Assembly (NCBI GenBank): GCA_019239895.1
Contig: JAFAZH010000022.1
Span: 190,583-254,582, forward strand
Direction: 5' to 3'
Origin: Abditibacteriaceae bacterium
GTDB taxonomy: Bacteria; Armatimonadota; Abditibacteriia; Abditibacteriales; Abditibacteriaceae
DNA: 64,000 nt
The notes beneath the pieces were generated by a model, which did not search any database, had not been told where the DNA came from, and worked only from the letters and a program-made list of their open reading frames with translations. Of the stretch, positions 2,089 through 55,060 are shown in pieces. Position 1 is the stretch's first letter; each line of letters begins with the position of its first letter. Made by a program: the position numbers and the translations under genes.

Positions 2089-2203
2089 GGCCCGCCGCTA
2101 AAGCAGCGGGCTGAGGGAAAAAGCCCGGTGAACCGGGCTGGAGACACCGCCATAGCCCCGTTTAGGGGGCTTCTAAGTTCAGCCCGCTGCTTTAGCGGCG
2201 GGC
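2089..2203. repeat. 26-bp inverted repeat (ggcccgccgctaaagcagcgggctga / tcagcccgctgctttagcggcgggc) enclosing a 64-nt loop that has its own internal hairpin (agcccggtgaaccgggct)
   Basis: Read directly. The arms at 2089-2114 and 2179-2203 are reverse complements. The element lies in the 190-bp gap between two minus-strand genes. Confidence 0.45.
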
Positions 2204-2225: not shown

Positions 2226-3959
2226 TTAATATACTTTACGCACTTCGACGCCGCGAAAATAGAACTGAATAATCTGGCGTGCCGTCCAACCTTCACGGGC
2301 ATGGTTTTCCGCGCCGCGCTGACACATACCAGCCCCATGCCCCCAGCCCGCCCCCTTGATAACAAACGCCGTGACGGTGCCTTTGGCATCACGTTGAGGC
2401 AACACAACAAAAGTCGAACTCGGCAGGGCTGTCGTAGAGCCTAAACGACCAGAAAGCATAGCGCGAATCTGCGAGTCACCATCTAACACCACAGTAGCTA
2501 TTTTTTGAGCCGCCACAGCCACCATAGCGCCACCCTTACCCTCAACTGACTTTTGCAACTCTACCCCCTGCACCATCAACCGCTTGATATGACCGGAGGC
2601 CGACCTTTCTAAAACGCGAATCTCTGTCGCATAATCCATCTTGGCATGGGGTGTCATGGCCTGGGCTAACTGCACTGGATTAACGATACGTGTCCAACGG
2701 TAGAATTCGGGCAAGTCCCCATCCTGAAAAAGAGCAGCGGTGCCGGTCGAAGTGCGGCGGCGTGATGCCAGGGTGCGCGTCTGAGTTGCCGATGGCTGGG
2801 CATAGCTGGGTAAATCGAGTGTGCAGTAGCGCACCCAATCGGCCTCGCTCATGCTGCTCTTGCAAAGCTGCGCCGTTAGCTTATGCTCGGCGGGCGAGAA
2901 ATCGCGGACGCTTCGTAAATAGGGTTCGGGCCGACCGTGCCAGACATCTTCGGCTGCCGCCGTAATGCCGCCGCTATTAGTGCCATAAACCGCATCCGCA
3001 ACACGTCCATGATAAAGGATGACCTGTCCAGCGGTTTCATCTACTGCGCGCGAGGTTATCGCCGATTCATTCTCAGTGCCAACATAACCCTGGCAATGAT
3101 CGTAATCGCAAATATCATAGCCATCAGCGCGATGCCGCCCGGCTTGAATCTTGGAAGTCGCTTCGGAGCGCGCACAAATGGCCTGCGCTTTCAAGGCTTC
3201 CAAAGGTGCAGAGCGATTCATCTCCCACGGCACCACGCCTTTCAAGTAATCGTCTAAGGGCAAGATATTCACCAGGCGCAGCGGACTCTTATGCAGAGCT
3301 GGCTCAAAGGAATACGTCTGCGGCGCGATTTCAAACGAACCACGATAAGCCCGTTGGTAACGCGGGTTATCGCCATTGGTGGCAACGTGCGTCGGCGCAC
3401 CGCTCACGACAACAAGGGCTAACTGCCAGCCACCATAAGTTCCGCTGGACGTATGAATTTGAATTGGCCCGCTTCCATTTTGCCCCTTGCCTGCTATATG
3501 CATATTGGGGTTAAAAGTAAAGGTAACAGCATCGGCTGGACGCACCGCAAGGCGACGACCTGGCTGAAGCGCATCAGTCACCATCATGGCCCCATTAGAC
3601 CACAAAACAATTGGGCCACCCCGCGTGGTGAGGCCGACACGAGTCAGTGGGGAGCAGGGACGTGGTGTTGCAACCGGCTCTATATTGCGGCGAGTTAGAC
3701 GTGGGGCAAGTTTGGCGGCACCAGGTTTGGCGGCCCCAGGTGCTGGAGTTGTTGTGGTAATCTGCGCCGTCTGCTTGCTGTTAGGCTGAGTTGTATCCGT
3801 AGAAACTGTAACGACACTTTGCACTGGACGCCGCACTGCACCCCGCGCTAAACCGAACCAAAGACCATAACTGAGCGCGCAAACTGTCAGCAATAGGAGT
3901 AACCCGACGCCAGTGAGGAAGTGCTGTGTCCGCGAGGAAGATGAACCAAAAAACCGCAT
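2226..3959 (-). CDS. SpoIID/LytB domain-containing protein (amidase enhancer-like) with N-terminal TM/signal region
   Basis: 577 aa. The C-terminal region carries SpoIID-like signatures (YLKGVVPWEM, KAQAICARSEA, GHGAGMCQRGAENHAREGWTARQIIQFYF). Hydrophobic N-terminus. Confidence 0.75.
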   Translation of the reverse strand: MRFFGSSSSRTQHFLTGVGLLLLLTVCALSYGLWFGLARGAVRRPVQSVVTVSTDTTQPNSKQTAQITTTTPAPGAAKPGAAKLAPRLTRRNIEPVATPRPCSPLTRVGLTTRGGPIVLWSNGAMMVTDALQPGRRLAVRPADAVTFTFNPNMHIAGKGQNGSGPIQIHTSSGTYGGWQLALVVVSGAPTHVATNGDNPRYQRAYRGSFEIAPQTYSFEPALHKSPLRLVNILPLDDYLKGVVPWEMNRSAPLEALKAQAICARSEATSKIQAGRHRADGYDICDYDHCQGYVGTENESAITSRAVDETAGQVILYHGRVADAVYGTNSGGITAAAEDVWHGRPEPYLRSVRDFSPAEHKLTAQLCKSSMSEADWVRYCTLDLPSYAQPSATQTRTLASRRRTSTGTAALFQDGDLPEFYRWTRIVNPVQLAQAMTPHAKMDYATEIRVLERSASGHIKRLMVQGVELQKSVEGKGGAMVAVAAQKIATVVLDGDSQIRAMLSGRLGSTTALPSSTFVVLPQRDAKGTVTAFVIKGAGWGHGAGMCQRGAENHAREGWTARQIIQFYFRGVEVRKVY

Positions 3960-4243: not shown

Positions 4244-5299
4244 ATGATTGAAACGCAGAACGAGTTAGTGACAGGCACCGTGTTGCGGGCCAGTGGCGCA
4301 TGGTATGAAGTGGATGTGCCAGCAGAGCAATTGGCGCAGGTGTCACTTAGTCAGGGTGAAGTTCCCGACAAAGATGTCCCAGAAGGCGTCCCGGCAGGTC
4401 ATGCGATCTTGCTCTGCACCTTACGGGGCAAGCTAAAGCTTGGCAAGCGGGAAGCAGCGCAGCCCGTTTCGGTGGGCGACCAGGTACGGGTACGCCCTCT
4501 TTCCAGTTTTGGCCCGGATGCGCGGGGGCGACGTTTGCGCGAGGGCTATATTGAGGAAGTCCTCCCGCGCCGCTCGTCATTGGGACGGTCACGCTATGGC
4601 AAGACCAACCAGATTACCGTCGCTAATCTGGATCAGGCGGTGATTGTGATGTCTCTGCGCGAACCGGAACTCAACACGCATCGCCTCGACCGCTTCTTAG
4701 TCCTCGCCGAAGCTTCCGACTTGCAAGCTGTCATTTGCTTTAATAAGTGCGACTTGCTAAGACGCCGCGAATTTAAGACCGAAGTAGAGCCGTTGATGAA
4801 ACTCTATGGGGGGTTGGGCTACATCCCCCTGGCGGTTTCTGCCGAGACAGATACTGGCATCAAAGAAGTGAGGGCGACTTTAGCCGGGCATGTATCGGCC
4901 ATGTTGGGGTCTTCTGGTGTGGGCAAATCCTCCCTGGTCAATGCCATTCAACCCGGCTTGCATTTGTGGGTTGGGGATGTCATGGACATGGGCAAAGGTC
5001 GCCACACGACCACAGAAGTCTCGCTGCATCCACTCGACAGTGGCGGTTATATCGCAGACACACCCGGCATCAAAACCGTGACTCTCCTGGAACAACAGGA
5101 GATTAATTTACCACAATGTTTCCCCGAAATTGCGCGCCTGGCCCCAGAATGCCGCTTTAATAACTGCACCCATATCCATGAGCCGGGTTGCGCCGTGCGC
5201 GCCGCCGCCGAATCCGGTGCCATTGCCCAAGCTCGTTACGACAGTTATCTCAAGATGAGTAACGATGAAGTGCTACGTCCCACTAACCGCAATCGTTAA
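4244..5299 (+). CDS. rsgA: Ribosome small-subunit-dependent GTPase A (circularly permuted GTPase)
   Basis: 351 aa. G4-G1-G3 order is typical of RsgA/YjeQ (NKCDLL ... GSSGVGKSSLVNAI ... DTPG). C-terminal zinc-finger cysteines are present (CRFNNCTHIHEPGC). Confidence 0.85.
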   Translation: MIETQNELVTGTVLRASGAWYEVDVPAEQLAQVSLSQGEVPDKDVPEGVPAGHAILLCTLRGKLKLGKREAAQPVSVGDQVRVRPLSSFGPDARGRRLREGYIEEVLPRRSSLGRSRYGKTNQITVANLDQAVIVMSLREPELNTHRLDRFLVLAEASDLQAVICFNKCDLLRRREFKTEVEPLMKLYGGLGYIPLAVSAETDTGIKEVRATLAGHVSAMLGSSGVGKSSLVNAIQPGLHLWVGDVMDMGKGRHTTTEVSLHPLDSGGYIADTPGIKTVTLLEQQEINLPQCFPEIARLAPECRFNNCTHIHEPGCAVRAAAESGAIAQARYDSYLKMSNDEVLRPTNRNR

Positions 5300-11332: not shown

Positions 11333-12043
11333 GCCGGGGCTATAAAAGCCCCGGCAGGAAGGCTAAAGCCAAGCGTCCGTTGGACGCCACGAGAATAGAG
11401 TAATAGAGTAATAGAGTAGAGGTTTAATATCTATGCTGCCTATAGAATGATTGGCCCTATCCTTCTTACCTGACATAGCACAAGTCACCCCGTAAACATC
11501 ATTGATATAATCTCGGTATGCGGCGCAGCAAGACTGAGATTTACTTGCATTTGGTGTGGGCTACAGCTCAGCGCAAGCAGATTATAACCACTCCAGTCGA
11601 GCGCCTTCTCTACCGCTGCATTCAAAACGAGGTGCAACACCTGGGATGCACTGTATTAGCCCTGGGTGGAATGCCTGATCACATTCATTTGGTAGTGCAA
11701 ACCCCGGCAACTATTTCAGTAGCGAAGTTAGCTCAACAAGTTAAAGGTGTCTCCTCTACTTTTGCGCGTGATCAGTTGACATTAGAGGAACCATTCCAGT
11801 GGCAAGACAACTATGCGGCTTTTAGCATCAGTCGCTCCCACCTAAAGAGAGTTGTTGCTTATGTGCGAAATCAAAAACAACATCATGCAGCAGGGCGTGT
11901 GTGGCAGGATTGGGAAGAAAGCGATGAGGAAGTACAATGAAACCACCCGTTAGGCAACACCTCCATTAAAATATCATCCTCGTGGCGTCCAACGGACGCT
12001 TGGCTTTAGCCTTCCTGCCGGGGCTTTTATAGCCCCGGCTTAC
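11329..12043 (+). mobile_element. REPtron-like unit: IS200/RAYT-type HuH transposase gene flanked by perfect 64-bp inverted repeats, each holding two palindromic (REP-like) hairpins
   Basis: The left IR (11329-11392) and right IR (11980-12043) are exact reverse complements. Each contains the hairpins gccggggc-tataaaa-gccccggc and gcgtcc-gtt-ggacgc. The left IR starts at the stop codon of the upstream GGDEF gene. Confidence 0.7.
11518..11940 (+). CDS. tnpA: IS200/IS605-family Y1 (HuH) transposase / REP-associated tyrosine transposase (RAYT)-like
   Basis: 140 aa. HuH motif DHIHLVV and overall similarity to IS200 TnpA (LHLVWATAQRK...). No tnpB partner is present. Confidence 0.8.
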   Translation: MRRSKTEIYLHLVWATAQRKQIITTPVERLLYRCIQNEVQHLGCTVLALGGMPDHIHLVVQTPATISVAKLAQQVKGVSSTFARDQLTLEEPFQWQDNYAAFSISRSHLKRVVAYVRNQKQHHAAGRVWQDWEESDEEVQ

Positions 12044-14792: not shown

Positions 14793-14842
14793 AGGAACCT
14801 CTTCTTGTCCTCTCACTCCACAATAATAAATGCATAAAGGGG

Positions 14843-14957
14843 CGTGTCATGCTGAGCGAAGCGAAGCATCTACTCTGCGGAGCTATGGAGTGGCGGGTTT
14901 AACCATCGCTTTCTGAACACTCATATCAGATGCTTCGCTTCGCTCAGCATGACACGC
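14843..14957. repeat. Perfect 29-bp inverted repeat (cgtgtcatgctgagcgaagcgaagcatct ... agatgcttcgcttcgctcagcatgacacg) with a 57-nt loop. A half-copy lies at 59431-59470.
   Basis: Read directly. It sits between the AAA ATPase stop and the nagB start. A second partial copy (cttgtcatgctgaacgcagtgaagcatctactctgcggag) lies upstream of mutS. Confidence 0.5.
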
Positions 14958-29739: not shown

Positions 29740-29985
29740 AATTCCTATGCTCCTTTACCGTAACGTCCTCTATTATTGTCTGTACAAGTTTATCTTTAAG
29801 AGCGGTTCGTCATTAGCTAATGTAAGTTGCCACCTCTGATTGCTATCCCTAATAGTATGTCATTTCGAGCGCAGTCGAGAAATCTTGCTGTTGAACGCAA
29901 CAGCCACGATTCAAAGATTCCTCGACTGCGCTTTGCTCCGCTCGGAATGACACTACTTCTTAAGTTGCAACCTCAGTTAGATAGT

Positions 29986-36601: not shown

Positions 36602-36763
36602 CTATCAATAGAAGCACATAAAAATTGTTATAAATTAGGTGTAAAATTTTTTACAGCAGATGAATCCAGCCTCACCGCGATTCTCAGCTAAAAAGAAACG
36701 ACCTCTGTTCCAAAACAGAGGTCGTTGATCTTGCTAAAGAGCAGCACGGCTCGTCGGTTTCGT

Positions 36764-38308
36764 TCAGGTGCCGGAGGTAAAACCTAATGCTCCCGCAAAA
36801 GCGGCACGGCGACGCTTAACAAAAGTCGCTGGAGAAGTAAAGCCTTCGCCGGTATGACCAGCCAGACTCATCGCCAGAAAGCCTTCACCGTTGATACCCT
36901 CGGCAGCCGAAGAGGAACCATTGGCAACGAAGACCGTGCATTGGTAAGCGTTGCGCACCGCAGTAATGCGCATGATGTCTTTGCTATGGATGACTAAAGT
37001 ATGGCCTCGTCCAGCTTCGGCTTTAAGCGCGACTTCCAGAGCTTCGTTAAAATCGCGTGCCCGGACTAATGGCATCACTGGCATCAATTGCTCTTCCACA
37101 ACCAGGTCGTGATTGGCAGGCACTTCTAAGAGGGCGACTTTAGTGCTGGCGGGCGCATTGACCCCGATACGTTGCAGAATGCGCGCGGCATCCCAGCCAA
37201 TGGGTTCTTTATTAATGTGCCCATCTTGCACCACATAATCGGCCAGGCGGCGGGCTTCCTCGCCTTGCACTAAGTAGGCTCCTGCTTCTTTCATCGCGGC
37301 AATCAGGGCGTCCGCTTTTTCCTGCACCACGACCGTCACCTTTTCGCCAATGCACAGCAGATTGTTGTCGAAAGAAGCGCCATTCACAATCGAGCGAGCC
37401 GCGTTGGGAATATCAGCCGTTTCATCTACAATCGCCGGGGGATTGCCTGGCCCGGCACAGACGGCCTTCTTGCCGACAGCCAAAGCCGCTTTGACGACGG
37501 CGGGGCCACCTGTGGCATTGATTAACCGCACAACCGGGTGCTTCATGGTGGCTTCAGCCGATTCAATGGTGGGGTTAGCCACGGACGTAAACATATTGGC
37601 CGGGCCACCATGCGAGGTAATCGCCTCATTCATCAAAGCCATAGTGGTGAGCGTACACTTCTTAGCCGAAGGATGTGGACAAATCACGGCTGAGTTACCC
37701 GCTACGGCAAAGATAATGGCGTTGTTAATGAGGCCAGAAGTTGGATTCGTGACCGGCGTGATACCGCAGATGACACCATAAGGAAAGTAATCATCAATGG
37801 TCAGGCCAAAGTCGCCGAGGTAAGTCTGTAACGGCAGCATCTCGAAGCCGGGTGTCTTTTCAGCACATAAGCGATTCTTGACTTCTTTATCCGCTACCCG
37901 GCCTAATCCGGTTTCTTCAACCGCCATCTGTGCCAAACGCAAGGCGTTATCACAGGCGCGTCGCCGCATCGCTTCGACACACTGTTTGCGTCGCTCCAAA
38001 GGCATCTTGACCCAGGCCCGTTGTGCAGTCTGAGCCGCGCCAACAGCTTCTTCCACCGTGGCGAAGACACCATGCAGTGCCAGCAACTCGGCGGGATTGC
38101 CCTGCGGATGCGCGGCGGCAGGCCGATTCTGAGGATCATCAATGCGCCCCCCGCCCCGTGCCGAAGGCCCGCCATAAGCGCCAGGCGACTGATTGAGATT
38201 ATTCCCAGAAATCGCACCCGCGCCGTTGCCACTCCCATTACTGCCCAGGGACAGGCTATCTAACACGCCACGCACAATATCTTCAATTTGCTGCTCGTTA
38301 ATCTGCAT
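36764..38308 (-). CDS. CoA-acylating aldehyde dehydrogenase (EutE/PduP-like BMC core enzyme) with N-terminal encapsulation peptide and a Gly/Ser/Asn-rich linker
   Basis: 514 aa. The N-terminal amphipathic helix MQINEQQIEDIVRGVLDSL is followed by a roughly 70-aa low-complexity linker. The ALDH catalytic region includes LLCIGEKV, containing the catalytic Cys. Confidence 0.9.
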   Translation of the reverse strand: MQINEQQIEDIVRGVLDSLSLGSNGSGNGAGAISGNNLNQSPGAYGGPSARGGGRIDDPQNRPAAAHPQGNPAELLALHGVFATVEEAVGAAQTAQRAWVKMPLERRKQCVEAMRRRACDNALRLAQMAVEETGLGRVADKEVKNRLCAEKTPGFEMLPLQTYLGDFGLTIDDYFPYGVICGITPVTNPTSGLINNAIIFAVAGNSAVICPHPSAKKCTLTTMALMNEAITSHGGPANMFTSVANPTIESAEATMKHPVVRLINATGGPAVVKAALAVGKKAVCAGPGNPPAIVDETADIPNAARSIVNGASFDNNLLCIGEKVTVVVQEKADALIAAMKEAGAYLVQGEEARRLADYVVQDGHINKEPIGWDAARILQRIGVNAPASTKVALLEVPANHDLVVEEQLMPVMPLVRARDFNEALEVALKAEAGRGHTLVIHSKDIMRITAVRNAYQCTVFVANGSSSAAEGINGEGFLAMSLAGHTGEGFTSPATFVKRRRAAFAGALGFTSGT

Positions 38309-38326
38309 AATTCACTTCCTAGTTTG

Positions 38327-38462
38327 GAACCACCGATAAACACGGATGGACACAGATGAGAAAGAGGATCGAGGATAGAAGATTGAGGATCGCAATTTAC
38401 GTATCCAGTATCTTGTATCCAGCATCCTAATTATCTGTGTCTATCTGTGTTCATCGGTGGTT
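38327..38462. repeat. Composite hairpin element E1. Outer arms: aaccaccgataaacacggatggacacagatga / atctgtgtctatctgtgttcatcggtggtt. Inner segment: gaggatcgaggatagaagattgaggatcg.
   Basis: Read directly. It lies between the stop of the 276-aa gene and the start of the aldehyde dehydrogenase gene. Confidence 0.6.
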
Positions 38463-38467
38463 AATTC

Positions 38468-39298
38468 TTATTGAATATCTAAGCCTAATTCACGGGCACG
38501 GTCGCGGGCTAAAGGTGTAATTAAGGCTCCAGCCGGTAATTGTAAAGGTTGGCCCTTACGGGCAAGCTGATCAATGTCCTGCGCCGTGATAAGTTGCTTT
38601 TTACCGTTGCCTGCTGGCTTTACAGCCCCCCCACCATTGAGGGCATTGGACTGTGTTCCAAAACGGGCTGTAATGATTGGGACAAGCTGCGTGGCAGGAA
38701 CAATTTCAAAACCATAGCTCGCTAGGGCGCGGCGATGACCTTCAAACATGCGCTTGAGCAGCGGGCTACGTGTTTTCAGGGCTTCATCATAAGGCGCGTG
38801 TAAGGCCGCAATGAGGGGCTTGCCCAACGCGATGGCAGAAAGGGCTGTTCGCGCTACGGGTTCATCAAAGATACCTAGGGCCATTTTCGCCGCATCGTCA
38901 TCACCGACAGCGGGCAAGAGTACAACATCATGTTCGGCAATCAGCCTTTCACGGGGAACTCGCTGCTTCAGTTCGTCTTCGGCGGGTTGAGTAATCTCGA
39001 AATGGGCGGCGTGTAAAGCATCTAAAGCAGTTCGGGCCTGGTCGTTTAAACATTCTTCACAGCACACCGCGACTAAAATACGACCCGCCACCTCCACGCC
39101 CTCAATGGCCGTGCCACGCCCCAACTGCACCGCGTTACCAATTTTAACCGAACCAGGCTGTCGCATTAAGGAGTTAGGGGCAAGGCCGTCTTGCTGACGC
39201 GTTGAAGATCCGTTGACTCGCACACCGCGTTCCTGCAAAAGACGCAGCACAACTTGGCTGATGATTTCCTCTAAATTTTGCAATTCGTTTCCACTCAC
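38468..39298 (-). CDS. BMC-associated protein of unknown function with N-terminal encapsulation-peptide-like helix
   Basis: 276 aa. N-terminus ELQNLEEIISQVVLRLLQERG, then a Q/S-rich linker. A CC-EEC cysteine cluster. The C-terminal repeat LITAQDIDQLARKG...LITPLARDRARELGLDI. No family recognised. Confidence 0.55.
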   Translation of the reverse strand: MSGNELQNLEEIISQVVLRLLQERGVRVNGSSTRQQDGLAPNSLMRQPGSVKIGNAVQLGRGTAIEGVEVAGRILVAVCCEECLNDQARTALDALHAAHFEITQPAEDELKQRVPRERLIAEHDVVLLPAVGDDDAAKMALGIFDEPVARTALSAIALGKPLIAALHAPYDEALKTRSPLLKRMFEGHRRALASYGFEIVPATQLVPIITARFGTQSNALNGGGAVKPAGNGKKQLITAQDIDQLARKGQPLQLPAGALITPLARDRARELGLDIQ

Positions 39299-39597
39299 GC
39301 GACTCGGCTCCGTCCGGTATTTCCCCGCGCCATTACGTCCACAGAATCTATAATGCCAACAATTAAGGTGCGCACCGGAATGCGTTTCATGCCTAACATA
39401 TCCTGGGCCGCTTTGCCCTCTTCAACCAATAGCACTAAATCGCCCTCGCCTGCCCCCACCGTATCTATCGCTGGGTGAGTGCGGCCATTTGGTTTCAGGT
39501 GTTCATCCACTGGCTGTACCACCATCAATTTCGTATTGGCATAAGCCGGGTGTTTGATGACGCCTTCAACATTTCCTATGACGCGCCCCAGTTTCAT
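39295..39597 (-). CDS. BMC vertex (pentamer) protein, EutN/PduN/CcmL family (BMC-P 1)
   Basis: 100 aa. MKLGRVIGNVEGV ... AIDTVGAGEGDLVLLVEEG ... IVGIIDSV. Confidence 0.85.
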   Translation of the reverse strand: MKLGRVIGNVEGVIKHPAYANTKLMVVQPVDEHLKPNGRTHPAIDTVGAGEGDLVLLVEEGKAAQDMLGMKRIPVRTLIVGIIDSVDVMARGNTGRSRVA

Positions 39598-39882
39598 CTA
39601 ATGTTCCTTAGCCGATGCAGCATTGGCTCGTACGTTATCTACAATGCCAACGATAGAGGCATCTACCGGGGGACGCTGCTCCCAGGCCAGGGGCGCTTCC
39701 CCGGAAGTTTCATACCACACGAACTCACCCGCTCCGACACCAATCGCATCAGCGGCAATCATTTGCGCCCCGGCTGGCTGCCCGCTATGGTCACACCCCT
39801 GCACAATCAGCAAGGGGATATTTTCTAATTTCGGGTCTTTGATGGTGCAGACCACACGCCCGATAATTTTCCCAAAGTCCAT
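39598..39882 (-). CDS. BMC vertex protein, EutN/CcmL family (BMC-P 2)
   Basis: Start taken at the ATG of MDFGKIIGRVVCT; the upstream in-frame start in the ORF track is GTG. Motifs DAIGVGAGEFV and IVGIVDNV. Confidence 0.85.
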   Translation of the reverse strand: MDFGKIIGRVVCTIKDPKLENIPLLIVQGCDHSGQPAGAQMIAADAIGVGAGEFVWYETSGEAPLAWEQRPPVDASIVGIVDNVRANAASAKEH

Positions 39883-39895
39883 AGCTTGTTTATTC

Positions 39896-40029
39896 ACCAC
39901 AAAGACACAAAGAGCACAAAGGGACGACTAAAATAGGGAATTGTGAATTTAACAATCTCTGACTATTCTTGATCTTCTATTTGCAAGCCTCTGTCCCTAA
40001 AACCTTTGTGCCCTTCGTGTCTTTGTGGG
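39896..40029. repeat. Composite hairpin element E2 (arms accacaaagacacaaagagcacaaaggg / cctttgtgcccttcgtgtctttgtggg)
   Basis: Read directly. It lies between the BMC-P3 stop and the BMC-P2 start. Confidence 0.6.
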
Positions 40030-40038
40030 AATCTAACC

Positions 40039-40323
40039 TCAGATATTCACTCGTTTGCCATCGCACTCGACTGAATCCACGATGCCGATGACCGAAGAAT
40101 CTACTGGCACTTGCTCAGCACGGTTGGCCAGGCGCGCGGAAGAACCAGCCACGGTGAGAACGGTTTCGCCAATACCCGCCCCGACGGTATCTATCGCCAC
40201 CACATAGGTATCGGTCAGGCTACCGTCCATCTTCATCTCGCGCACGAGCAGCAGTTTCCAGCCGACCAGTTTAGGGTCTTTCTGCGTTGCGACCACGGTG
40301 CCGACCACTTTGCCAAGTCTCAT
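40039..40323 (-). CDS. BMC vertex protein, EutN/CcmL family (BMC-P 3)
   Basis: 94 aa. MRLGKVVGTVVAT ... AIDTVGAGIGETVL ... IGIVDSVE. Confidence 0.85.
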   Translation of the reverse strand: MRLGKVVGTVVATQKDPKLVGWKLLLVREMKMDGSLTDTYVVAIDTVGAGIGETVLTVAGSSARLANRAEQVPVDSSVIGIVDSVECDGKRVNI

Positions 40324-40332
40324 GATAAGTTA

Positions 40333-40423
40333 GGTTATAGGTGATGGGTTATAGGTGATAGGTAATAATTGACCTATGAACAATGATAAGCGCAAATTCC
40401 TTTGGCCTATCACCTATAACCCC
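40333..40423. repeat. Hairpin element E3 made of degenerate ttataggtga tandem repeats (ggttataggtgatgggttataggtgataggtaa ... cctatcacctataaccc)
   Basis: Read directly. It lies between the PduL stop and the BMC-P3 start. Confidence 0.5.
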
Positions 40424-40425
40424 TG

Positions 40426-41208
40426 TCATTTACAAATCCGGCAGATGCCAGCGCGTGGGGAAAGCACTAAAGCTTTCGCGCCGGGTTGCACGCCAGCGGC
40501 ATTGCCTTCATCGGTATCAATATGCATCTCAGCTTTAAAGGCTGGATCGGTGCGAATTAAGACATTGTAGAACACTAAGCCTTGATCCCCTGCCGGAATT
40601 TCAACCGGAATTTCATCGCCATCTTTGACACCGAGCAAGCTGGCCTCGTCGGGATGCAGATGCACATGGCGTTTAGCGCGAATCAGCGCATCCGGCAGGT
40701 GAATGCTACCCTGTGGCCCGACTATTGTAATAGGTGAACCTGTGCCATGATTAACCGATTGTAAAATCGGCGGCATCATGCCCAGCGATAAGGCATCGGT
40801 GCGCGAAACTTCAAACTGACTCTTGCTGCGCTCCGGCCCTAAGATACGCACATTGGAAATCGAGCCACGCGGCCCCACAATCTGCACCAGTTGCTCACTG
40901 GCGAACTGCCCTTCTTGATACAGAAACTTAAAGGGCGTCAACCGCTGACCGGGGCCAAAAAGTTGCTCCACATGCTCCGGCGTGAGGTGCCCATGCCGCG
41001 CCGAGATATTGCAGGGAAACCCCTCCTGCGCAATCTGCTCCGGTGAAGGTTGCTGCGCACTCGCTTCAGCCCCAAACGGCGTGGTGGGGCTACCCGGTGT
41101 AAGCCTCGCACTACCATGCCCGTTGCTGCCCACGCCCCCGGCTCCCCCCAATTGAGTTACCACTTCCTGGGTAATCAGCCGCACCAAGTCTTCGTATGAA
41201 ATCTTCAT
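40426..41208 (-). CDS. pduL: Phosphotransacylase PduL (phosphate propanoyl/acyltransferase) with N-terminal encapsulation peptide
   Basis: Start at the ATG of MKISYEDLVRLITQEVVTQL (amphipathic helix plus G-rich linker). Two PduL repeats are present (RHVHLHPDEAS..., HIDTDEGNAAG). Confidence 0.85.
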   Translation of the reverse strand: MKISYEDLVRLITQEVVTQLGGAGGVGSNGHGSARLTPGSPTTPFGAEASAQQPSPEQIAQEGFPCNISARHGHLTPEHVEQLFGPGQRLTPFKFLYQEGQFASEQLVQIVGPRGSISNVRILGPERSKSQFEVSRTDALSLGMMPPILQSVNHGTGSPITIVGPQGSIHLPDALIRAKRHVHLHPDEASLLGVKDGDEIPVEIPAGDQGLVFYNVLIRTDPAFKAEMHIDTDEGNAAGVQPGAKALVLSPRAGICRICK

Positions 41209-41223
41209 AGCAGAACAGGTGGA

Positions 41224-41334
41224 ACTACGAATGAACACGAATCAACACAAATGAAGTAGATACTGGATACTCGATCCTCTATCTTCGATCTTCTATCCTC
41301 TTTTATTTGTGTCCATCTGTGTTCATTCGTGGTT
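41224..41334. repeat. Composite hairpin element E4. Arms: aactacgaatgaacacgaatcaacacaaatga / tcatttgtgtccatctgtgttcattcgtggtt. Inner: ggatactcgatcctctatcttcgatcttctatcctc.
   Basis: Read directly. It lies between the BMC-H stop and the pduL start. Its inner repeats match those of E1 in reverse orientation. Confidence 0.6.
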
Positions 41335-41602
41335 AAAACACTTTTTCAAGATCAGTATGTGGGCGGGGAATGACATGAACACTGACCAGTTCACCCACAC
41401 GCTGAGCGGCGGCGCTACCGGCATCGGTGGCTGCTTTCACAGCGCCTACATCGCCTGCGACCATGACGGTGACTAAACCGCCGCCGATGCTCTGCTTGCC
41501 CAGCAATTCCACATTGGCCGCTTTGACCATTGCGTCGGCGGCTTCAATCGCGCCGACTAAACCTTTTGTTTCCACTAAACCTAACGCTTCTCCGTTTGCC
41601 AT
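41333..41602 (-). CDS. BMC shell hexamer protein (BMC-H, PduA/EutM family)
   Basis: 89 aa. [29 protein letters not shown] ... [13 protein letters not shown]. Confidence 0.9.
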
Positions 41603-41663
41603 TGTACTCTCCTATTTTTCATCGAACGTCTCTTAATTCAATTTATTTGTCTCTGCCTAAAGC

Positions 41664-42080
41664 TTAACGGCGTCCGCGCTGACTGGTAGCACGCTCCGCA
41701 GGCTCGCCGTCGTTGGCACTGTCCTGTCCCGCGGGCAAGCCCTTGCCGGGGCCGCTGCCATTGAGGGCGCCGATGTAGTGACCAAAAGCGCGCGGCGATT
41801 TACCATGACCCTTGGGCAAAATCTTTTCTAAGTCCGCGTGTGGCCGTGCAATAACGTGGGCCGAAATCACTTCACCCACGCGACGTGCAGCAGCGGCTCC
41901 GGCATCAACAGCCGCCGTCACTGCGCCCACATCGCCACGCACCGTCACTGTGACTAAAGCCGACCCTACCTGGTCATAACCTTCCAGTTGCACGTTGGCC
42001 GACTTTGCCATCGCATCGGCGGCTTCAATCAGGGCGATTAAGCCCTTCGTTTCCACAAGTCCTAAAGCTTCTCCCGGCAT
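41664..42080 (-). CDS. BMC shell hexamer protein (BMC-H) with ~45-aa C-terminal Gly/Pro-rich extension
   Basis: 138 aa. [29 protein letters not shown] ... [13 protein letters not shown], then a low-complexity tail. Confidence 0.9.
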
Positions 42081-42141
42081 AATCTCTCCTTGTCCTCTGT
42101 TTCCAGGGCATTACTGATTCTTCAAATTCGTATAGCTGCGT

Positions 42142-43059
42142 TCACTTTTGTAAGCTTTCAGCTACTCGACGGGCTACCTCGCCTATGATGCGGCGCAGTT
42201 CTTCTTCACCGATCTCAATCTCGGCTGGCTTGCCATTGCTACCATTGGCCGCGTTATTCGATTGAGCCGATGGACGCGCATTGGCATTATCATCGCTGGC
42301 CCCGGCATAAGCTGCCGCTCCAAAGCCGGTGCGCGGCACATCCGGCGCGTAGTTCACGTTCTTGTCTTTGTCTTTATATTCTATGCGGCAACTGCCCCCG
42401 GCTTGCACTCCATAACGCGCTCGCGCTTCCATGAGTTCTTGTGCCCGTTCTGGCGAGAACACATTTTCTGAACCAAGCTGGCGGGCGACCAGGGAAATCT
42501 TGGCGAAGTGCTCAACGGTTTCCATCTTGTAGTAGGCATTCATCACCGTCTGCCCGATAGTAACCACGCCATGATTGGCTAACAAGAATGCATCGTATTC
42601 CTGCACATAATTGTCGAGAATGTCCTGGGTCAACTCATCGCTGCCAGGGACACCGTACTTCGCCAACGGCACACTGCCGAGGGTAATCACCACTTCTGGC
42701 AAGGTGCAACGATCAAGGCTGAGACCCGCCACCGCAAAACCGGTCGCCGTCAGAGGATGGGCATGGCACACGGCGCGCACATCGGGCCGGGCATCATAAA
42801 AGGCGCGATGCATCTTCAGTTCGCTGGAGGGTTTCATGGTACCGCGCAGCTTATTGCCCGCTCGGTCAATGACCACCAGCATATCAGGCGTCAGAAACCC
42901 CTTCGAGACACCAGTCGGAGTGGCCAGAATCTCATTCGCGTTTAGCCGCACGGAAATGTTGCCATCGTTGGCCGCCACATATTCACGATGCCAGATACGG
43001 CGGCCAATCTCGCAAATCTCTTCGCGCATAGTGCGTTCATTAAAAGTTTGTTCTGCCAT
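42142..43059 (-). CDS. Class II aldolase/adducin-family aldolase (fuculose/rhamnulose-1-phosphate aldolase-like) with C-terminal encapsulation peptide
   Basis: 305 aa. Metal-binding His motifs (CHAHPLTATGFA, LANHGVVTIG). C-terminal extension with Gly/Asn linker plus the amphipathic helix EEELRRIIGEVARRVAESL. Confidence 0.85.
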   Translation of the reverse strand: MAEQTFNERTMREEICEIGRRIWHREYVAANDGNISVRLNANEILATPTGVSKGFLTPDMLVVIDRAGNKLRGTMKPSSELKMHRAFYDARPDVRAVCHAHPLTATGFAVAGLSLDRCTLPEVVITLGSVPLAKYGVPGSDELTQDILDNYVQEYDAFLLANHGVVTIGQTVMNAYYKMETVEHFAKISLVARQLGSENVFSPERAQELMEARARYGVQAGGSCRIEYKDKDKNVNYAPDVPRTGFGAAAYAGASDDNANARPSAQSNNAANGSNGKPAEIEIGEEELRRIIGEVARRVAESLQK

Positions 43060-43080
43060 AAAATTATCCGTAAATACCGT

Positions 43081-43935
43081 TTAGGCTTGCGCCACAATAA
43101 TCTGCACTTCAGCCCGTTGCAAGGCCGCCTCAATTTCAGCCGGAGGCGTTGCATCCGTTACCAGCACATCAATCTTTGCCCAATCGGCTACAAAAACCAT
43201 ATCGCGCCGCTGGAATTTCGCCGCATCCAACAGCAGGGCCACGCGATTCGCCCGCACCATCAATTCGCGCTGCCCTTCGACTTCCCAATGGTTAGAATCG
43301 TAAAACCCTTCTGCATCCGCACCACCGGCCCCAATTAACAACCAATCGCCAGCGCGCACATGATCGAGCGTCTGCTTGAGGTGAGGGCCAATTAAGATGT
43401 CGTGCTTGGGGTAGACCATGCCACCCGTCACCAACACATCCACACCCAGGGTTTCGCCCAATAAAGATGCTGCCGGTAGGGAGTTGGTCACTACGGAAAC
43501 ACGTCGCTGGCGCAGATGCTTCGCCGCCGCATAGCAGGTCGTGCCGCCCGCTAAGAGCACATTTTGCCCGTCCTCAATTAAAGCCGCCGCCGCTTCACCA
43601 ATGCGCGCTTTAGAGGTGGCGCGTAATTCGGCCCGTTGCGAGAAAGAAGTTACGTGGTCCAGCGTATCAACTGGAGAAACTGCTACTTCAGTTAAGCCCA
43701 CCACAGAGCCATTGGGTGATTTACTCTTGCCATTAGCGGATGCGGAGGAATAGCCATGCGAGCTAATAGCCCCGCCTCGCGTGCGCTGGAGCCGCCCGGT
43801 GCGATGCAGTTCTTCGAGGTCACGGCGCACGGTTGCATCGGAGACATGAAGCTGACGAGCCAAGGCTTTGACCTCCAAAAACGGCTGGCGGGCCAAGGCA
43901 TCTTCAATTTTGCTAAACCGATGAGCGCGGAGCAT
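43081..43935 (-). CDS. DeoR/GlpR-family transcriptional regulator
   Basis: 284 aa. N-terminal HTH (LARQLHVSDATVRRDLEELHRTGRLQRTRGGA) and a DeoR C-terminal sugar-phosphate-binding domain. Confidence 0.8.
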   Translation of the reverse strand: MLRAHRFSKIEDALARQPFLEVKALARQLHVSDATVRRDLEELHRTGRLQRTRGGAISSHGYSSASANGKSKSPNGSVVGLTEVAVSPVDTLDHVTSFSQRAELRATSKARIGEAAAALIEDGQNVLLAGGTTCYAAAKHLRQRRVSVVTNSLPAASLLGETLGVDVLVTGGMVYPKHDILIGPHLKQTLDHVRAGDWLLIGAGGADAEGFYDSNHWEVEGQRELMVRANRVALLLDAAKFQRRDMVFVADWAKIDVLVTDATPPAEIEAALQRAEVQIIVAQA

Positions 43936-44025
43936 TTGGTTCTATGATAATGCAACTCTGCGCGTTTGTCAACAACTTTACACAAATTTAATCAAAATAT
44001 TGCATAATCACGCAGAAACTCATCT

Positions 44026-44128
44026 TTTCAACACAAAGACCACAAAGAGAACACAAAAGCCACAAAAGGAGACAATACCGTCCTTCTTCGTGGTCTTTGT
44101 GCAACCTTTGTGGTCTTTGTGTTGAAAA
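44026..44128. repeat. Hairpin element E5 (arms ttcaacacaaagaccacaaagagaacacaaaagccacaaaagga / tccttcttcgtggtctttgtgcaacctttgtggtctttgtgttgaaaa)
   Basis: Read directly: roughly 45-bp arms built from cacaaag repeats. It lies between the Gfo/Idh/MocA stop and the deoR start. Confidence 0.6.
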
Positions 44129-45499: not shown

Positions 45500-45940
45500 A
45501 TGGGTACGAGGTTGTATGTTGGCAATTTGAGCTATAGCGTGGACAACCAGGCATTGGAAGAGTTGTTCGCGCAGTATGGCACGGTGAACAGCGCGGAGGT
45601 CATCAGCGAGCATGGCTCCGGGCGCAGCAAGGGATTTGGATTTGTGGAGATGGACTCAGACGAAGCAGCTCAAGCCGCCATCACAGCTCTCCATGACAAG
45701 GAGTTTCAAGGTCGTCCTCTAACCGTCAATGAAGCCCGACCACGCGAAGAGCGTAGCGGTGGTCGCGGTGGCGGTGGTGGTCGCGGTGGTTATGGCGGCG
45801 GTGGTGGTCGCGGTGGTGGCGGTGGCTACGGCGGTGGCGGCGGCTACGGTGGCGGTGGTGGCTACGGTGGCGGTGGCGGTCGTGGCGGTGGCGGCGGTGG
45901 ACGCGGCGGTAGCGGCGGCAATCGCCGGGAACGCTACTAA
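45500..45940 (+). CDS. RRM-type RNA-binding protein with Gly/Arg/Tyr-rich C-terminal tail
   Basis: 146 aa. RNP-2 LYVGNL, RNP-1 KGFGFVEM, then GGRGGYGGGGG repeats. Confidence 0.85.
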   Translation: MGTRLYVGNLSYSVDNQALEELFAQYGTVNSAEVISEHGSGRSKGFGFVEMDSDEAAQAAITALHDKEFQGRPLTVNEARPREERSGGRGGGGGRGGYGGGGGRGGGGGYGGGGGYGGGGGYGGGGGRGGGGGGRGGSGGNRRERY

Positions 45941-46012: not shown

Positions 46013-46203
46013 GACACTGTTGCGAGCGATTGCTGCCGATAGCAGGCAGCGGATTGGCTATAATGCTTAATGTTCATTAGCCGCCTCGACAGCCGCCTTG
46101 GCTTTTCGGCTCGTTGGCTGATTTATCATTGGCGAATTTAATTTATAGGTTGCACAGTGTCACAAGGAGAAGTAAACGAACGTTGTTAAGAGGATAAGTA
46201 ACC

Positions 46204-46569
46204 ATGCAAGACTTTCAACATGACTACCAGCAGAGTGATAGCGATGAAATGGAGACGATGCAGCCTGCCAAACAAAATTTGCCAGCCGACTCACCTTCTT
46301 CTGAAACCGATGCGGGTCTCGACGATGACACCATAGATCAACTCGGAGGCGAACCAGTAGCAGGAGCCAATGTCTTGGAAATAGCGGATGACATTCGGGA
46401 AATTCCGATGACCGATCTGGCCGATGCAAATATGGGCGCAGGGCTACAATCCGGGGAACTATCCGACCTGAACGCCCCTGGCGAAGTAGACATCGAAGAA
46501 CTGGACGAAGACGCCCTTTCGGATACTGATATTCCACCCGACGCACTGCTTGATCCGATTGAAGAGTAG
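46204..46569 (+). CDS. Highly acidic hypothetical protein (Asp/Glu-rich)
   Basis: 121 aa with a GAGGA RBS upstream; composition about 30% D/E. No motifs. Confidence 0.45.
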   Translation: MQDFQHDYQQSDSDEMETMQPAKQNLPADSPSSETDAGLDDDTIDQLGGEPVAGANVLEIADDIREIPMTDLADANMGAGLQSGELSDLNAPGEVDIEELDEDALSDTDIPPDALLDPIEE

Positions 46570-46570
46570 A

Positions 46571-46768
46571 GACCTAACCCCCCGTCCCCTTTCCCGGCAC
46601 GGGAAGGGGGTGTCACAGGACAACCATTCTCTTTTATTATTCCGCTTTGATTGCCTGAATGAGCAATTTCCCTTTTGACCTAAAACAACCCAAAACCTAT
46701 AAAGGTGCTATAAAGTCATCCTCAGACACCCCCTTCCCGTGCCGGGAAGGGGGACGGGGGGTTAGGTC
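46571..46768. repeat. MITE-like element: perfect 44-bp inverted repeats (gacctaaccccccgtcccctttcccggcacgggaagggggtgtc) separated by 110 bp. A related solo copy lies at 49861-49960.
   Basis: Arms 46571-46614 and 46725-46768 are exact reverse complements. The element fills the gap between the acidic-protein stop (46569) and the PBP2 start (46775). Confidence 0.6.
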
Positions 46769-46774
46769 TTTCCA

Positions 46775-48740: not shown

Positions 48741-48868
48741 CTTTCAACACAAAGAACACGAAGAATACAAAGGTCGCAGAGGATAAGTAGAAGTGGAGAA
48801 GGCGTTGCTTTGACCTTCTCTCCCTTTTGTGCCCTCTGTGCCATCTTTGTGTTCTTTGTGTTGAAAAG
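48741..48868. repeat. Composite hairpin element E6 (arms ttcaacacaaagaacacgaagaatacaaagg / cctctgtgccatctttgtgttctttgtgttgaa; inner gaggataagtagaag)
   Basis: Read directly. It lies between the convergent PBP2 (+) and ADP-ribosylglycohydrolase (-) genes. Confidence 0.6.
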
Positions 48869-49797: not shown

Positions 49798-49860
49798 GAT
49801 TTTACCTTACTGCAAATTGAATATAGAAAACGGGACAACATTGAAGCGTTGTCCCGTTTG

Positions 49861-50030
49861 ACCTACCCCCCGTCCTCCAGCCCATCAGACAGCATATTGA
49901 TGCTGTCTGATGGGCACCCAACCTTCCCGAACCGGGAAGGGGGTGTCAGAGGATGACTTTCTATTTTAAACCTTTACTGTAGAGTAGTCCTTTGTCCCCC
50001 TCGCCGTTTCGGAGAGGGGACAGGAGAGAG
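49861..50030. repeat. Cluster of hairpins including a solo copy of the 46571-type repeat (acctaccccccgtcc ... ccttcccgaaccgggaagggggtgtcagaggatgacttt) plus the hairpins catcagacagcat-attg-atgctgtctgatg and cccctcgccgtttcggagagggg
   Basis: Read directly. It lies between the flotillin stop (50032) and the ADP-ribosylglycohydrolase start (49797). Confidence 0.5.
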
Positions 50031-54886: not shown

Positions 54887-54902
54887 TTTTAGCCACGGAA
54901 AA

Positions 54903-55060
54903 GAGGAGGGAGAATCGAGGATAGAAGATAGAGAATTGAGGATAGAAAAGGCTAAGCAGAGGCCAGTTGTCCTCTCAGCGCCGTGGCGATCCTCGATCCT
55001 CCATCTTCGATCCTCCATCTTCGATCCTCCATCTTCGATCTTCCATCCTCGTCTCTTCTT
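54903..55060. repeat. Hairpin/tandem-repeat element E7: gaggatagaag repeats facing four tandem 16-bp catcttcgatcctc repeats
   Basis: Read directly. It begins 17 bp after the stop of the TIGR03118-like gene. Confidence 0.55.

Follow-up and report, generated by a model that had tools for sequence, protein, structure and literature searches.

The question raised by this locus is why four gaps between the genes of a single bacterial microcompartment (BMC) operon are each filled by a long hairpin. The operon lies within a window of 64,000 nucleotides, the whole stretch of DNA that was analysed and to which positions refer, from the genome of an Abditibacteriaceae bacterium (assembly GCA_019239895.1, contig JAFAZH010000022.1). 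The hairpins, here E1 to E4, are accompanied in the same window by three further copies outside the operon, E5 to E7. A sequence-only reading had offered two explanations for them, RNA stem-loops that set the shell-to-cargo stoichiometry or a dispersed family of miniature mobile elements. Our analysis points to the second one: E1–E7 are probably copies of several dispersed palindromic repeat families, that is, selfish DNA similar to MITEs (miniature inverted-repeat transposable elements) or repetitive extragenic palindromes (REPs), and not purpose-built regulators of the operon.

A search for inverted arms in the window confirmed the four elements and the three extra copies at the positions previously reported, with arms of 23–50 nt that are 74–96% complementary on alignment at all seven sites (Table 1). 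The elements are long imperfect hairpins whose arms consist of tandem 7–10-nt units, each arm using a three-letter alphabet, with periods of 7, 8–9, 10, and 14 nt according to Tandem Repeats Finder. The number of units varies between the two arms of one hairpin and also between copies. Searches of the window with the arm motifs produced 4, 3, and 12 matches versus 0.00–0.01 expected by chance. RNA folding, proposed as a check in the earlier reading, yielded energies from −32 to −70 kcal/mol and z-scores from −3.9 to −10 compared with dinucleotide shuffles; no shuffle folded as well as the element for E1–E6, and 1 in 200 did for E7.

According to their units, the arms correspond to four families. 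F1, with 10-mer units ACACAGATRR (ACACAGAT arms), forms the outer arms of E1 and E4; F2, with 8–9-mer CACAAAG units, constitutes E2, E5, and E6; F3, with heptamer TAGGTGA units, is represented by E3; and F4, with 7/14-mer units GAGGATA GAAGAT, provides the inner modules of E1 and E4 as well as the stand-alone E7. The F1 pattern is matched exactly by E1 and E4, that of F2 by both E5 and E6. The arms of E2 are CCACAAAG ACACAAAG AGCACAAAGG and their complement, around an 80-nt interior with F4-like remnants; those of E3 have a 17-nt perfect core and 5.3 copies of TAGGTTA / TAGGTGA units versus their complement. The termini of E6 (TTTCAACACAAAGA), which also has an inner hairpin, are identical to those of E5, and the units of E7 are GAGGATAGAAGAT versus ATCTTCGATCCTCC, with 4.5 copies. 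The acac-type repeats attributed earlier to the outer arms in general are present in E1, E2, and E4 but not in E3, made of TAGGTGA / GGTTATA heptamers, and the inner module of gaggatagaagat is clear in E1 and E4, with only traces in E2. That this module appears in both orientations proved correct, as the outer arms of E1 and E4 match one 24-mer on the same strand and their GAGGATA units are on opposite strands.

E1–E4 belong to a single transcription unit, from the promoter-like site (43972–43944) to the terminator (36726–36697), with a gene order, assigned by Pfam, of DeoR regulator, class II aldolase, BMC-H (138 aa), BMC-H (89 aa), PduL, three EutN (EutN/CcmL vertex) genes, a 276-aa protein, and aldehyde dehydrogenase (AldDH). 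The PduL sequence is 100% identical to a protein that NCBI assigns to an Abditibacteriaceae metagenome-assembled genome. On the transcribed strand, they begin 0–10 nt after a stop codon and end 9–19 nt before the next start codon, thus occupying the entire intergenic spacer. E1 occupies the stretch from the 276-aa gene, with its stop at 38468, to the ribosome-binding site and ATG of AldDH (38308), E2 is placed between two EutN genes, 10 nt past the stop at 40039, and E3 begins 3 nt past the PduL stop, while an arm of E4 shares bases with the stop codon (41333–41335) that ends the 89-aa BMC-H gene. The closeness to stop codons, previously reported for three of the four elements, applies on the minus strand to all of them. 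The remaining copies adjoin unrelated genes: E5 is located 19 nt past the stop of an oxidoreductase gene lying upstream, a short distance ahead of the operon promoter, E6 between the convergent genes for PBP2 and an ADP-ribosylglycohydrolase, and E7 11 nt past the stop of an NHL-repeat gene. A gene 1.4 kb from E5 (45500–45940, plus strand) encodes an RNA-binding protein that has an RRM domain and a long Gly-rich tail.

Table 1. Coordinates of the elements, the host operon, and other repeats in the window, and occupancy of the corresponding sites in relatives (L057, L058, L059, L060, and L199). Copies in L199 are given in the coordinates of that locus; z, folding z-score.
Feature	Position	Strand	Description	z or basis
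E1	38328..38462		composite palindrome; arms 38328-38372 / 38418-38462, 45 nt, 78% complementary	-10.1
E1 outer F1 arms	38328-38359 and 38431-38462		10-nt units AACCACCGAT GAACACAGAT AGACACAGAT	
E1 inner F4 hairpin	38364-38390 and 38401-38427		heptamer hairpin	
E2	39897..40028		F2 palindrome; arms 39897-39922 / 40003-40028, 26 nt, 92%	-7.5
E3	40333..40422		F3 heptamer hairpin; arms 40333-40355 / 40399-40421, 23 nt, 83%	-5.0
E4	41223..41334		composite palindrome; arms 41223-41255 / 41302-41334, 33 nt, 82%	-4.7
E4 inner F4 module	41256-41300		orientation opposite to that in E1; outer F1 arms like those of E1	
E5	44025..44128		F2 palindrome, TTTTCAACACAAAGACCACAAAG...CTTTGTGGTCTTTGTGTTGAAAA; arms 44025-44066 / 44087-44128, 42 nt, 83%	-9.6
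E6	48742..48866		F2 palindrome; arms 48742-48764 / 48844-48866, 23 nt, 96%	-8.1 and -7.0 (two strands)
E7	54898..55056		stand-alone F4 heptamer/14-mer hairpin; 50-nt arms, 74%	-3.9
BMC operon	36764..43935	-	PVM-like (Planctomycetes-Verrucomicrobia microcompartment); hosts E1-E4	Pfam
DeoR regulator gene	43081-43935	-		Pfam
PduL gene	40426-41208	-	phosphotransacylase	Pfam
AldDH gene	36764-38308	-	aldehyde dehydrogenase	Pfam
Promoter-like site	43944..43972	-	TTGACA-17-TATCAT, ahead of DeoR gene	11/12 consensus match
Intrinsic terminator	36697..36726	-	canonical, 13-bp stem + T-tract, 3' of AldDH gene	
E1 site in relatives			occupied in L057 (GC-rich repeat) and L060 (61 nt)	
E2 site in relatives			occupied in L060 (195-nt composite) and L199 (unrelated ATTCCCCC...GGGGGAAT palindrome)	
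E3 site in relatives			occupied in L057 (GC-rich repeat) and L060 (TTTTGGG/TTAGGTC heptamer hairpin)	
E4 site in relatives			occupied in all five	
L199 palindrome copies	1533-1674, 2876-3029, 4402-4558			
Y1 transposase gene	11518-11940		IS200-like	PF01797 E 6e-26; NF033573 77 bits; RAYT model 35 bits
Repeats flanking Y1 gene	11334-11392 and 11982-12040		inverted, ~59 nt, three small GC-rich hairpins each	
AATAGAGT array	11394-11418		x3 tandem, just inside Y1-flanking repeat	
200-nt palindrome	46570-46769		AGACCTAACCCCCCGTCCCCTTTCCCGGCACGGGAAGGGGGTGTCA...; 51-nt arms, 94% complementarity	
Inverted repeat and related hairpin	14842-14957 and 29855-29950		perfect 30-nt inverted repeat GCGTGTCATGCTGAGCGAAGCGAAGCATCT and related GTCATTTCGAGCGCAGTCGAGAAATC hairpin	
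GC-rich palindrome	2090-2203		multi-hairpin	

The presence of these arms is not limited to this genome. A 21-mer of the F2 arm (CACAAAG) was found at 55 loci from at least 13 phyla in a search of 596 Gb of species-representative genomes, for which about one chance match was expected. The hosts include Abditibacteria, other Armatimonadota, Planctomycetota, Acidobacteriota, Kiritimatiellae, Chloroflexota, Bacteroidota, Alphaproteobacteria (two Phenylobacterium isolates among them), Gemmatimonadota, Cloacimonadota, Ignavibacteriae, a Desulfobacula, Binatia, and Parachlamydiales. Most of these loci show the same hairpin grammar, and tandem-unit hairpins of other kinds are frequent in their vicinity. 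Likewise, a 22-mer of the F1 arm (that of E1 and E4) was detected in at least 120 metagenome contigs with GC contents of 0.37–0.69. These data, together with the copies next to unrelated genes of the window, speak in favour of the dispersed miniature family that the earlier reading had left as its alternative. For the F2 21-mer, no match appeared among 2.9 million viral contigs, so a phage vector was rejected. We group F1 and F2 in this work as CAC-core elements, with arms of about three 9–10-nt units that carry a CAC core followed by purines, and with a CCAC (or CAACAC) unit at the stem base; the core-array rule used on 175 external loci also captures E1, E2, E4, E5, and E6. As the ungapped hairpin detector misses copies in which the arms differ by a whole unit, its counts represent lower bounds. 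In one Planctomycetaceae metagenome-assembled genome (MAG; loci L005, L008, L025, L037, L046, and L049), the CACAAAG arrays are inside-out, with the complement arm first, and they sit at the centre of a longer repeat of ~200 nt with at least six copies.

The syntenic comparison suggested in the earlier reading was carried out on the orthologous operons of five relatives (L057, L058, L059, L060, and L199, with PduL proteins 82, 80, 76, 76, and 68% identical, respectively), all of them with identical gene order. These operons differ in presence, absence, and sequence at the E1, E2, and E3 sites, each of which is empty, with gaps of 12–29 nt, in two or three of the five. L058 shows gaps of 17, 16, and 22 nt at these three sites, and L059 has short gaps at the E1 and E3 sites. 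L057 presents unrelated GC-rich repeats at three sites, that of E4 included, and L060 has TTTTGGG/TTAGGTC heptamer hairpins at both the E4 and E3 sites. In the more distant, Abditibacteria-like BMC operon of L199, three copies of a ~120-nt palindrome, ATTCCCCCTTTTTAAAGGGGGA...TCCCCCTTTAAAAAGGGGGAAT (of the ATTCCCCC...GGGGGAAT type), were found in intergenic gaps. The repeat families that fill a given gap of the operon thus vary from genome to genome. At the E4 site, a hairpin of tandem units begins right at the stop of the 89-aa BMC-H gene in four of the relatives, its units differing from one relative to the next, and the site is occupied in all six operons, the one in the window included, the sequence there being replaced each time.

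This comparison bears on the role favoured in the earlier reading, according to which the hairpins would be RNA regulators specific to the operon, selected for differential mRNA stability or partial termination to yield more shell than cargo. The hairpins of the puf operon and the REP of malE-malF are examples of such tuning of operon mRNA. In favour of this role are the location of E1–E4 inside one transcription unit, their start 0–10 nt past stop codons, and the hairpin that follows the 89-aa BMC-H gene in six of six operons despite sequence replacement. However, the other three sites are often empty or hold different hairpins, the same elements stand beside unrelated genes and in divergent promoter regions, and the gaps of the relatives seem to be filled by whichever palindrome family is locally active, as with the three copies of an unrelated element in L199. 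Moreover, E1–E4 lack a U-tract, the 3' arms being followed by GGTGGTTCCAAAC, GTGGTGAATAAAC, CCTAACTTATC, and GTAGTTCCACC, and thus they are not terminators; F2 elements show T's ahead of the stem and A's behind it. Scanning for intrinsic terminators and promoters detected the AldDH terminator, which provides a sample of the ordinary terminator form in this organism, and none inside E1–E4. Folding of sense versus antisense strands gave a mixed result in the window and 11 versus 12 in 23 co-directional external loci (Wilcoxon p = 0.78), and strand-specific RNA selection was consequently rejected. We consider, therefore, that a designed and conserved role in shell-to-cargo stoichiometry is unlikely. 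The part of the idea that survives is the stem-loop after the major shell gene: occupancy of the E4 site fits selection for such a structure, and an insertion hot spot would fit too. For microcompartment biology the lesson is one of caution: in operons of this type, hairpins that separate shell from cargo genes do not belong to a conserved design, the E4 gap being the one possible exception.

Regarding the preference for gene 3' ends that had been attributed to the mobile alternative, it was rejected for the wider family, as the 38 genomic contexts scored from crude gene calls (longest ORFs only) comprised 23 co-directional, 8 convergent, and 7 divergent cases, a mix close to random. The exclusion of three known classes was correct. 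The elements are not a clustered regularly interspaced short palindromic repeat (CRISPR) array, since their tandem units are of 7–14 nt and the long-range relation is inverted, not direct; they are not canonical REPs or REP-derived hairpins (REPINs), as there is no GTAG/CGTC tag and the arms, 23–50 nt of tandem units, have (A)ACCAC or TTCAACAC at their start; and, as shown above, they are not intrinsic terminators. No Rfam family fits E1–E7 at gathering or permissive thresholds, with only sub-threshold matches to microRNA-precursor hairpins. The single feature of the window that passes the Rfam threshold is a 6S RNA (RF00013; 463–677, minus strand; 59 bits, full-length match).

A further possibility is that the hairpins are local by-products of simple sequence, generated in place by slippage and palindrome formation without dispersal or an associated gene. 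The variation in unit number between arms and between copies is in line with it, as is the attribution of the bacterial over-representation of 5–11-nt tandem units to slippage, cited in PMC4692102; in addition, the inverted heptamer arrays of Xanthomonas vary in length between species at the same sites (PMC4692102). Against this origin, identical arms of 21–30 nt are present at unrelated loci of many phyla, and the F1 arm has a fixed length of 30 nt in three units, AACCACAGAT GAACACAGAT GGACACAGAT, with a distinct terminal CCAC unit. Alignment of 122 F1 arms revealed conservation at eight further positions, which the search pattern did not cover (A, A/G, C, C, A, C, A, G), with CCAC.G at 89–98%, and an abrupt drop of conservation at both ends, so the arm is a defined sequence and not a free-running microsatellite. 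The F1 loops, of 8–270 nt, are unconserved. One palindrome polarity dominates among F1 copies (~80 versus 5), and the composite of E1 and E4, with F1 outside and F4 inside, aligns end to end at 73–76% with an element of another locus (L115, on a 260-kb contig), as expected if it had been copied as a unit. Local independent origin is quite unlikely as an explanation of the whole set; the shared arms argue against it for F1 and F2, and for F3 and F4 it is possible. Two other interpretations of the arms were dropped: a mini-ORF MNTD(G/R)H(R/K) within the F1 arm, of which 28% of arms have ATA, not ATG, and a resemblance to DnaA boxes (TTATCCACA), found at a subset of some low-GC copies only.

The dispersed arms are, in addition, physically linked to a gene. 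When the ORFs of the 175 arm-selected loci (3,915 in 1.07 Mb) were compared all-against-all by BLAST, one recurrent non-housekeeping family emerged, at 12 loci, and other cargo was discarded, as the remaining ORF clusters were all of housekeeping type. This family is the GxxExxY protein, of ~125 aa (TIGR04256, E 1e-40; PF13366 PDDEXK_3), with a PD-(D/E)XK nuclease fold; its sequence predicts a minimal nuclease with the D...ExK site intact. At 10 of these loci, the gene is bracketed exactly by a purine-type arm on one side and the complementary arm on the other, these being F2 arms in L016, L044, and L053, and F1 arms in L073, L074, L100, L106, L141, L170, and L173. The full form is a cassette composed of a three-unit arm, the GxxExxY gene, and the complementary arm. 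The presence of the gene between the arms explains the second mode in the arm-to-arm distances, where 105 of 113 gaps are of 8–270 nt and 5 are of 395–488 nt. Conversely, all seven loci fetched through GxxExxY homologues alone, which include Sumerlaeota and Thermoguttaceae MAGs, have arrays of 10-mers with CAC or CGC cores next to the gene. In one of the arm-selected loci (L016, from a Bacteroidales MAG; positions 1260–2020 of that locus), the GxxExxY gene is surrounded by long direct arrays of CTTTGTGTTAAA-type units and not by a simple hairpin. Two JGI contigs of the same locus (L186 and L188) differ by an insertion sequence (IS) element with a DDE transposase, present in some samples only, in the hairpin downstream of the GxxExxY gene; the palindromes can, therefore, be insertion targets themselves.

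The F1 and F2 elements look like the cargo-less form of this cross-phylum cassette, and the copies in the window, with loops of 20–80 nt, are its empty form. On this basis, we tentatively propose a mobile cassette with CAC-core ends, consisting of the 30-nt arm of three 10-nt units, the gene of ~125 aa, and the complementary arm, whose nuclease would spread itself and the far commoner cargo-less copies; we regard this specific proposal as doubtful. The nuclease would recognise or cut the arm, hairpin, or cruciform DNA, and in RNA the long stem would allow the cassette to reside within operons without harm. If this were the case, the cargo-less copies would be those now found between microcompartment genes. 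The GxxExxY protein of the longer, gene-bearing copies is not a known transposase, and its family is listed as of function unknown, with "multiple transfers, mixed clades" (PMC3424549). It gave no match in the PDB by sequence, and belongs to a very large family, with more than 8,000 candidates scored in one search. Literature searches, the coverage of which was not exhaustive, returned only incidental mentions of GxxExxY / PF13366, with no account of palindromes or of their link to the gene, only incidental matches to the arm sequences in unrelated papers, and no prior description of the CAC-core cassette.

The gene link also bears on the view of the units as binding-site arrays for a conserved host protein, either a single-strand binder of the cold-shock or RRM type or a nucleoid protein, through which the formation of hairpins would be modulated. 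GTCTTTG, a heptamer preferred by CspB, is present in the pyrimidine arms. A unit of 7–10 nt is close in size to a single binding site or a turn of the helix, each arm has a three-letter alphabet, and a conserved partner could account for conservation across phyla; CspB reportedly binds direct heptamer repeats with one protein per heptamer, as discussed in PMC4679880. Nevertheless, many different unit sequences coexist in one genome, and the tight association with a nuclease gene points to a mobile element over a host regulatory array, which makes these binding arrays highly unlikely.

Several observations weigh against the elements being selfish copies spread by such a nuclease. No GxxExxY gene was found by tblastn in the window, in the operons of the relatives, or in ~80 kb of Abditibacteria loci, so that a mobilising nuclease in this genome can only be presumed. 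The loops of the empty copies gave only one partial tblastn match to GxxExxY; they are not gene remnants, and simple cargo deletion does not explain them. No direct repeats were visible beside the arms, the resembling flanks being extensions of the palindrome instead, and neither a target-site duplication nor a close-strain pair of empty and filled sites appeared among the loci seen; hence no transposition event is documented. Outside this genome, F3 and F4 (E3, E7, and the inner modules) turned up only in the composite of L115, without any cargo link, and this genome's own copy was the sole match to the F1, F3, and F4 patterns in the first 60 loci. Finally, the occupancy of the E4 site in the six operons hints at function over pure selfishness.

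With these points considered, we still favour dispersed palindromic families as the origin of E1–E7, and a mechanism can be outlined. The elements occupy permissive spacers, fitting precisely from a stop codon to the ribosome-binding site that follows, and they nest one in the loop of another. A nuclease, or a host factor acting on the arms, would spread them, either by cutting of hairpin or cruciform DNA followed by copy-repair or by mobilisation of the empty copies in trans. Unit numbers may drift through slippage, and interiors may flip through recombination between arms. As E1–E4 are transcribed in the operon mRNA, their stems of 25–45 bp should form, and they would be plausible RNase III substrates or blocks to 3'-exonucleases, with any effect on mRNA being secondary. 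Selection may have co-opted this side effect at E4, after the shell gene, raising the mRNA of that gene.

Long palindromes of some kind are present in around a quarter of the longer intergenic gaps of the window, and several of them belong to other families, so the genome carries several palindromic repeat families besides F1–F4 (Table 1). The 200-nt palindrome (AGACCTAACCCCCCGTCCCCTTTCCCGGCACGGGAAGGGGGTGTCA...) has a partial relative ~3 kb away (~49860–49960), indicative of another dispersed repeat family, and the adjoining 128-aa ORF (46160–46546) has no Pfam or NCBIfam match. The Y1 locus (11334–12040) shows a layout similar to that of REPINs and their REP-associated tyrosine transposases (RAYTs), unrelated to E1–E7. 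Mobilisation of E1–E7 as REP/REPIN elements by an IS200-like transposase of the RAYT type, for which the Y1 gene of the window and the multicopy intergenic palindromes would be the ingredients, is hardly credible and already largely refuted, as this gene is flanked by its own unrelated GC-rich repeats and scores 35 bits versus a RAYT cut-off of 80, and E1–E7 lack both the terminal GTAG or CGTC tetranucleotide and the size of the 20–40-nt imperfect palindromes described as REPs in PMC3733652.

The results have some practical consequences. The fixed link between the GxxExxY / PDDEXK_3 family and a conserved palindrome provides a concrete candidate substrate, the arm (e.g., AACCACAGATGAACACAGATGGACACAGAT), for its members. 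It also offers a candidate explanation for identical short repeats in unrelated phyla, a puzzle already raised for other heptamer repeats (PMC4679880). In addition, these palindromes break metagenome assemblies and generate spurious small ORFs: the public ENA contig of this genome terminates inside E3, as expected of repeat sequence, and many homologues are on contigs of 1–3 kb.

Among known systems, the GGGAATC repeats of Xanthomonas and the short tandem heptamers of cyanobacteria (Rehm et al. 2015, PMC4692102) are likewise tandem 7-nt intergenic units, with 70–75 convergent pairs per Xanthomonas genome able to form stem-loops, and with one case inside an operon (pecE-pecF), as for E1–E4. Convergent arrays with a period of 7/14 and 4–9 copies are found here in E3, E7, and the inner modules of E1 and E4, while the outer arms of E1, E2, E4, E5, and E6 have units of 8–10 nt and are not heptamers. 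Related species carry those heptamer arrays at shared intergenic sites, where length and sequence vary, as observed at the E4 site. The TAACTGA repeats (MacGregor 2015, PMC4679880) share with our arms the presence of identical units in distant phyla without a known mechanism. However, the published arrays have other unit sequences, no nesting, three-unit arm, or cargo gene has been reported for them, and the emphasis of both papers is on G-quadruplexes or translational control.

The similarity to REPs, bacterial interspersed mosaic elements (BIMEs), and REPINs lies in the short intergenic palindromes, often within operons and just past stop codons, in the mosaic of motifs, and in the link to a nuclease-type gene itself flanked by the repeats. 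REPs stabilise upstream mRNA. REPs and REPINs are species-specific and associated with an HUH/Y1 transposase gene, whereas the elements described here have arms of tandem 9–10-nt units, sequences shared across phyla, and a PD-(D/E)XK gene in the loop. Also comparable are MITEs such as Correia/NEMIS, ERIC, and RUP, of 100–200 nt, with terminal inverted repeats and many copies co-transcribed with their neighbours, which are cargo-less kin of a longer gene-bearing form; Correia hairpins are RNase III substrates. E1–E7 similarly have terminal inverted repeats, lengths below ~300 nt, and many dispersed copies, but differ in that no target-site duplication was seen, in the unconserved interiors of F1 and F2, and in a longer form without a recognisable transposase. 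Finally, in the intervening sequences of 23S rRNA that bear an ORF, a long stem is closed by a loop encoding this small selfish ORF, and RNase III removes them from the RNA; the eukaryotic foldback (FB) transposons have long inverted terminal repeats in which short units are arrayed in tandem, and a central coding region may be present or absent. Both differ from the elements described here in hosts, locations, and proteins, and the likeness is one of architecture, with no sequence kinship expected.

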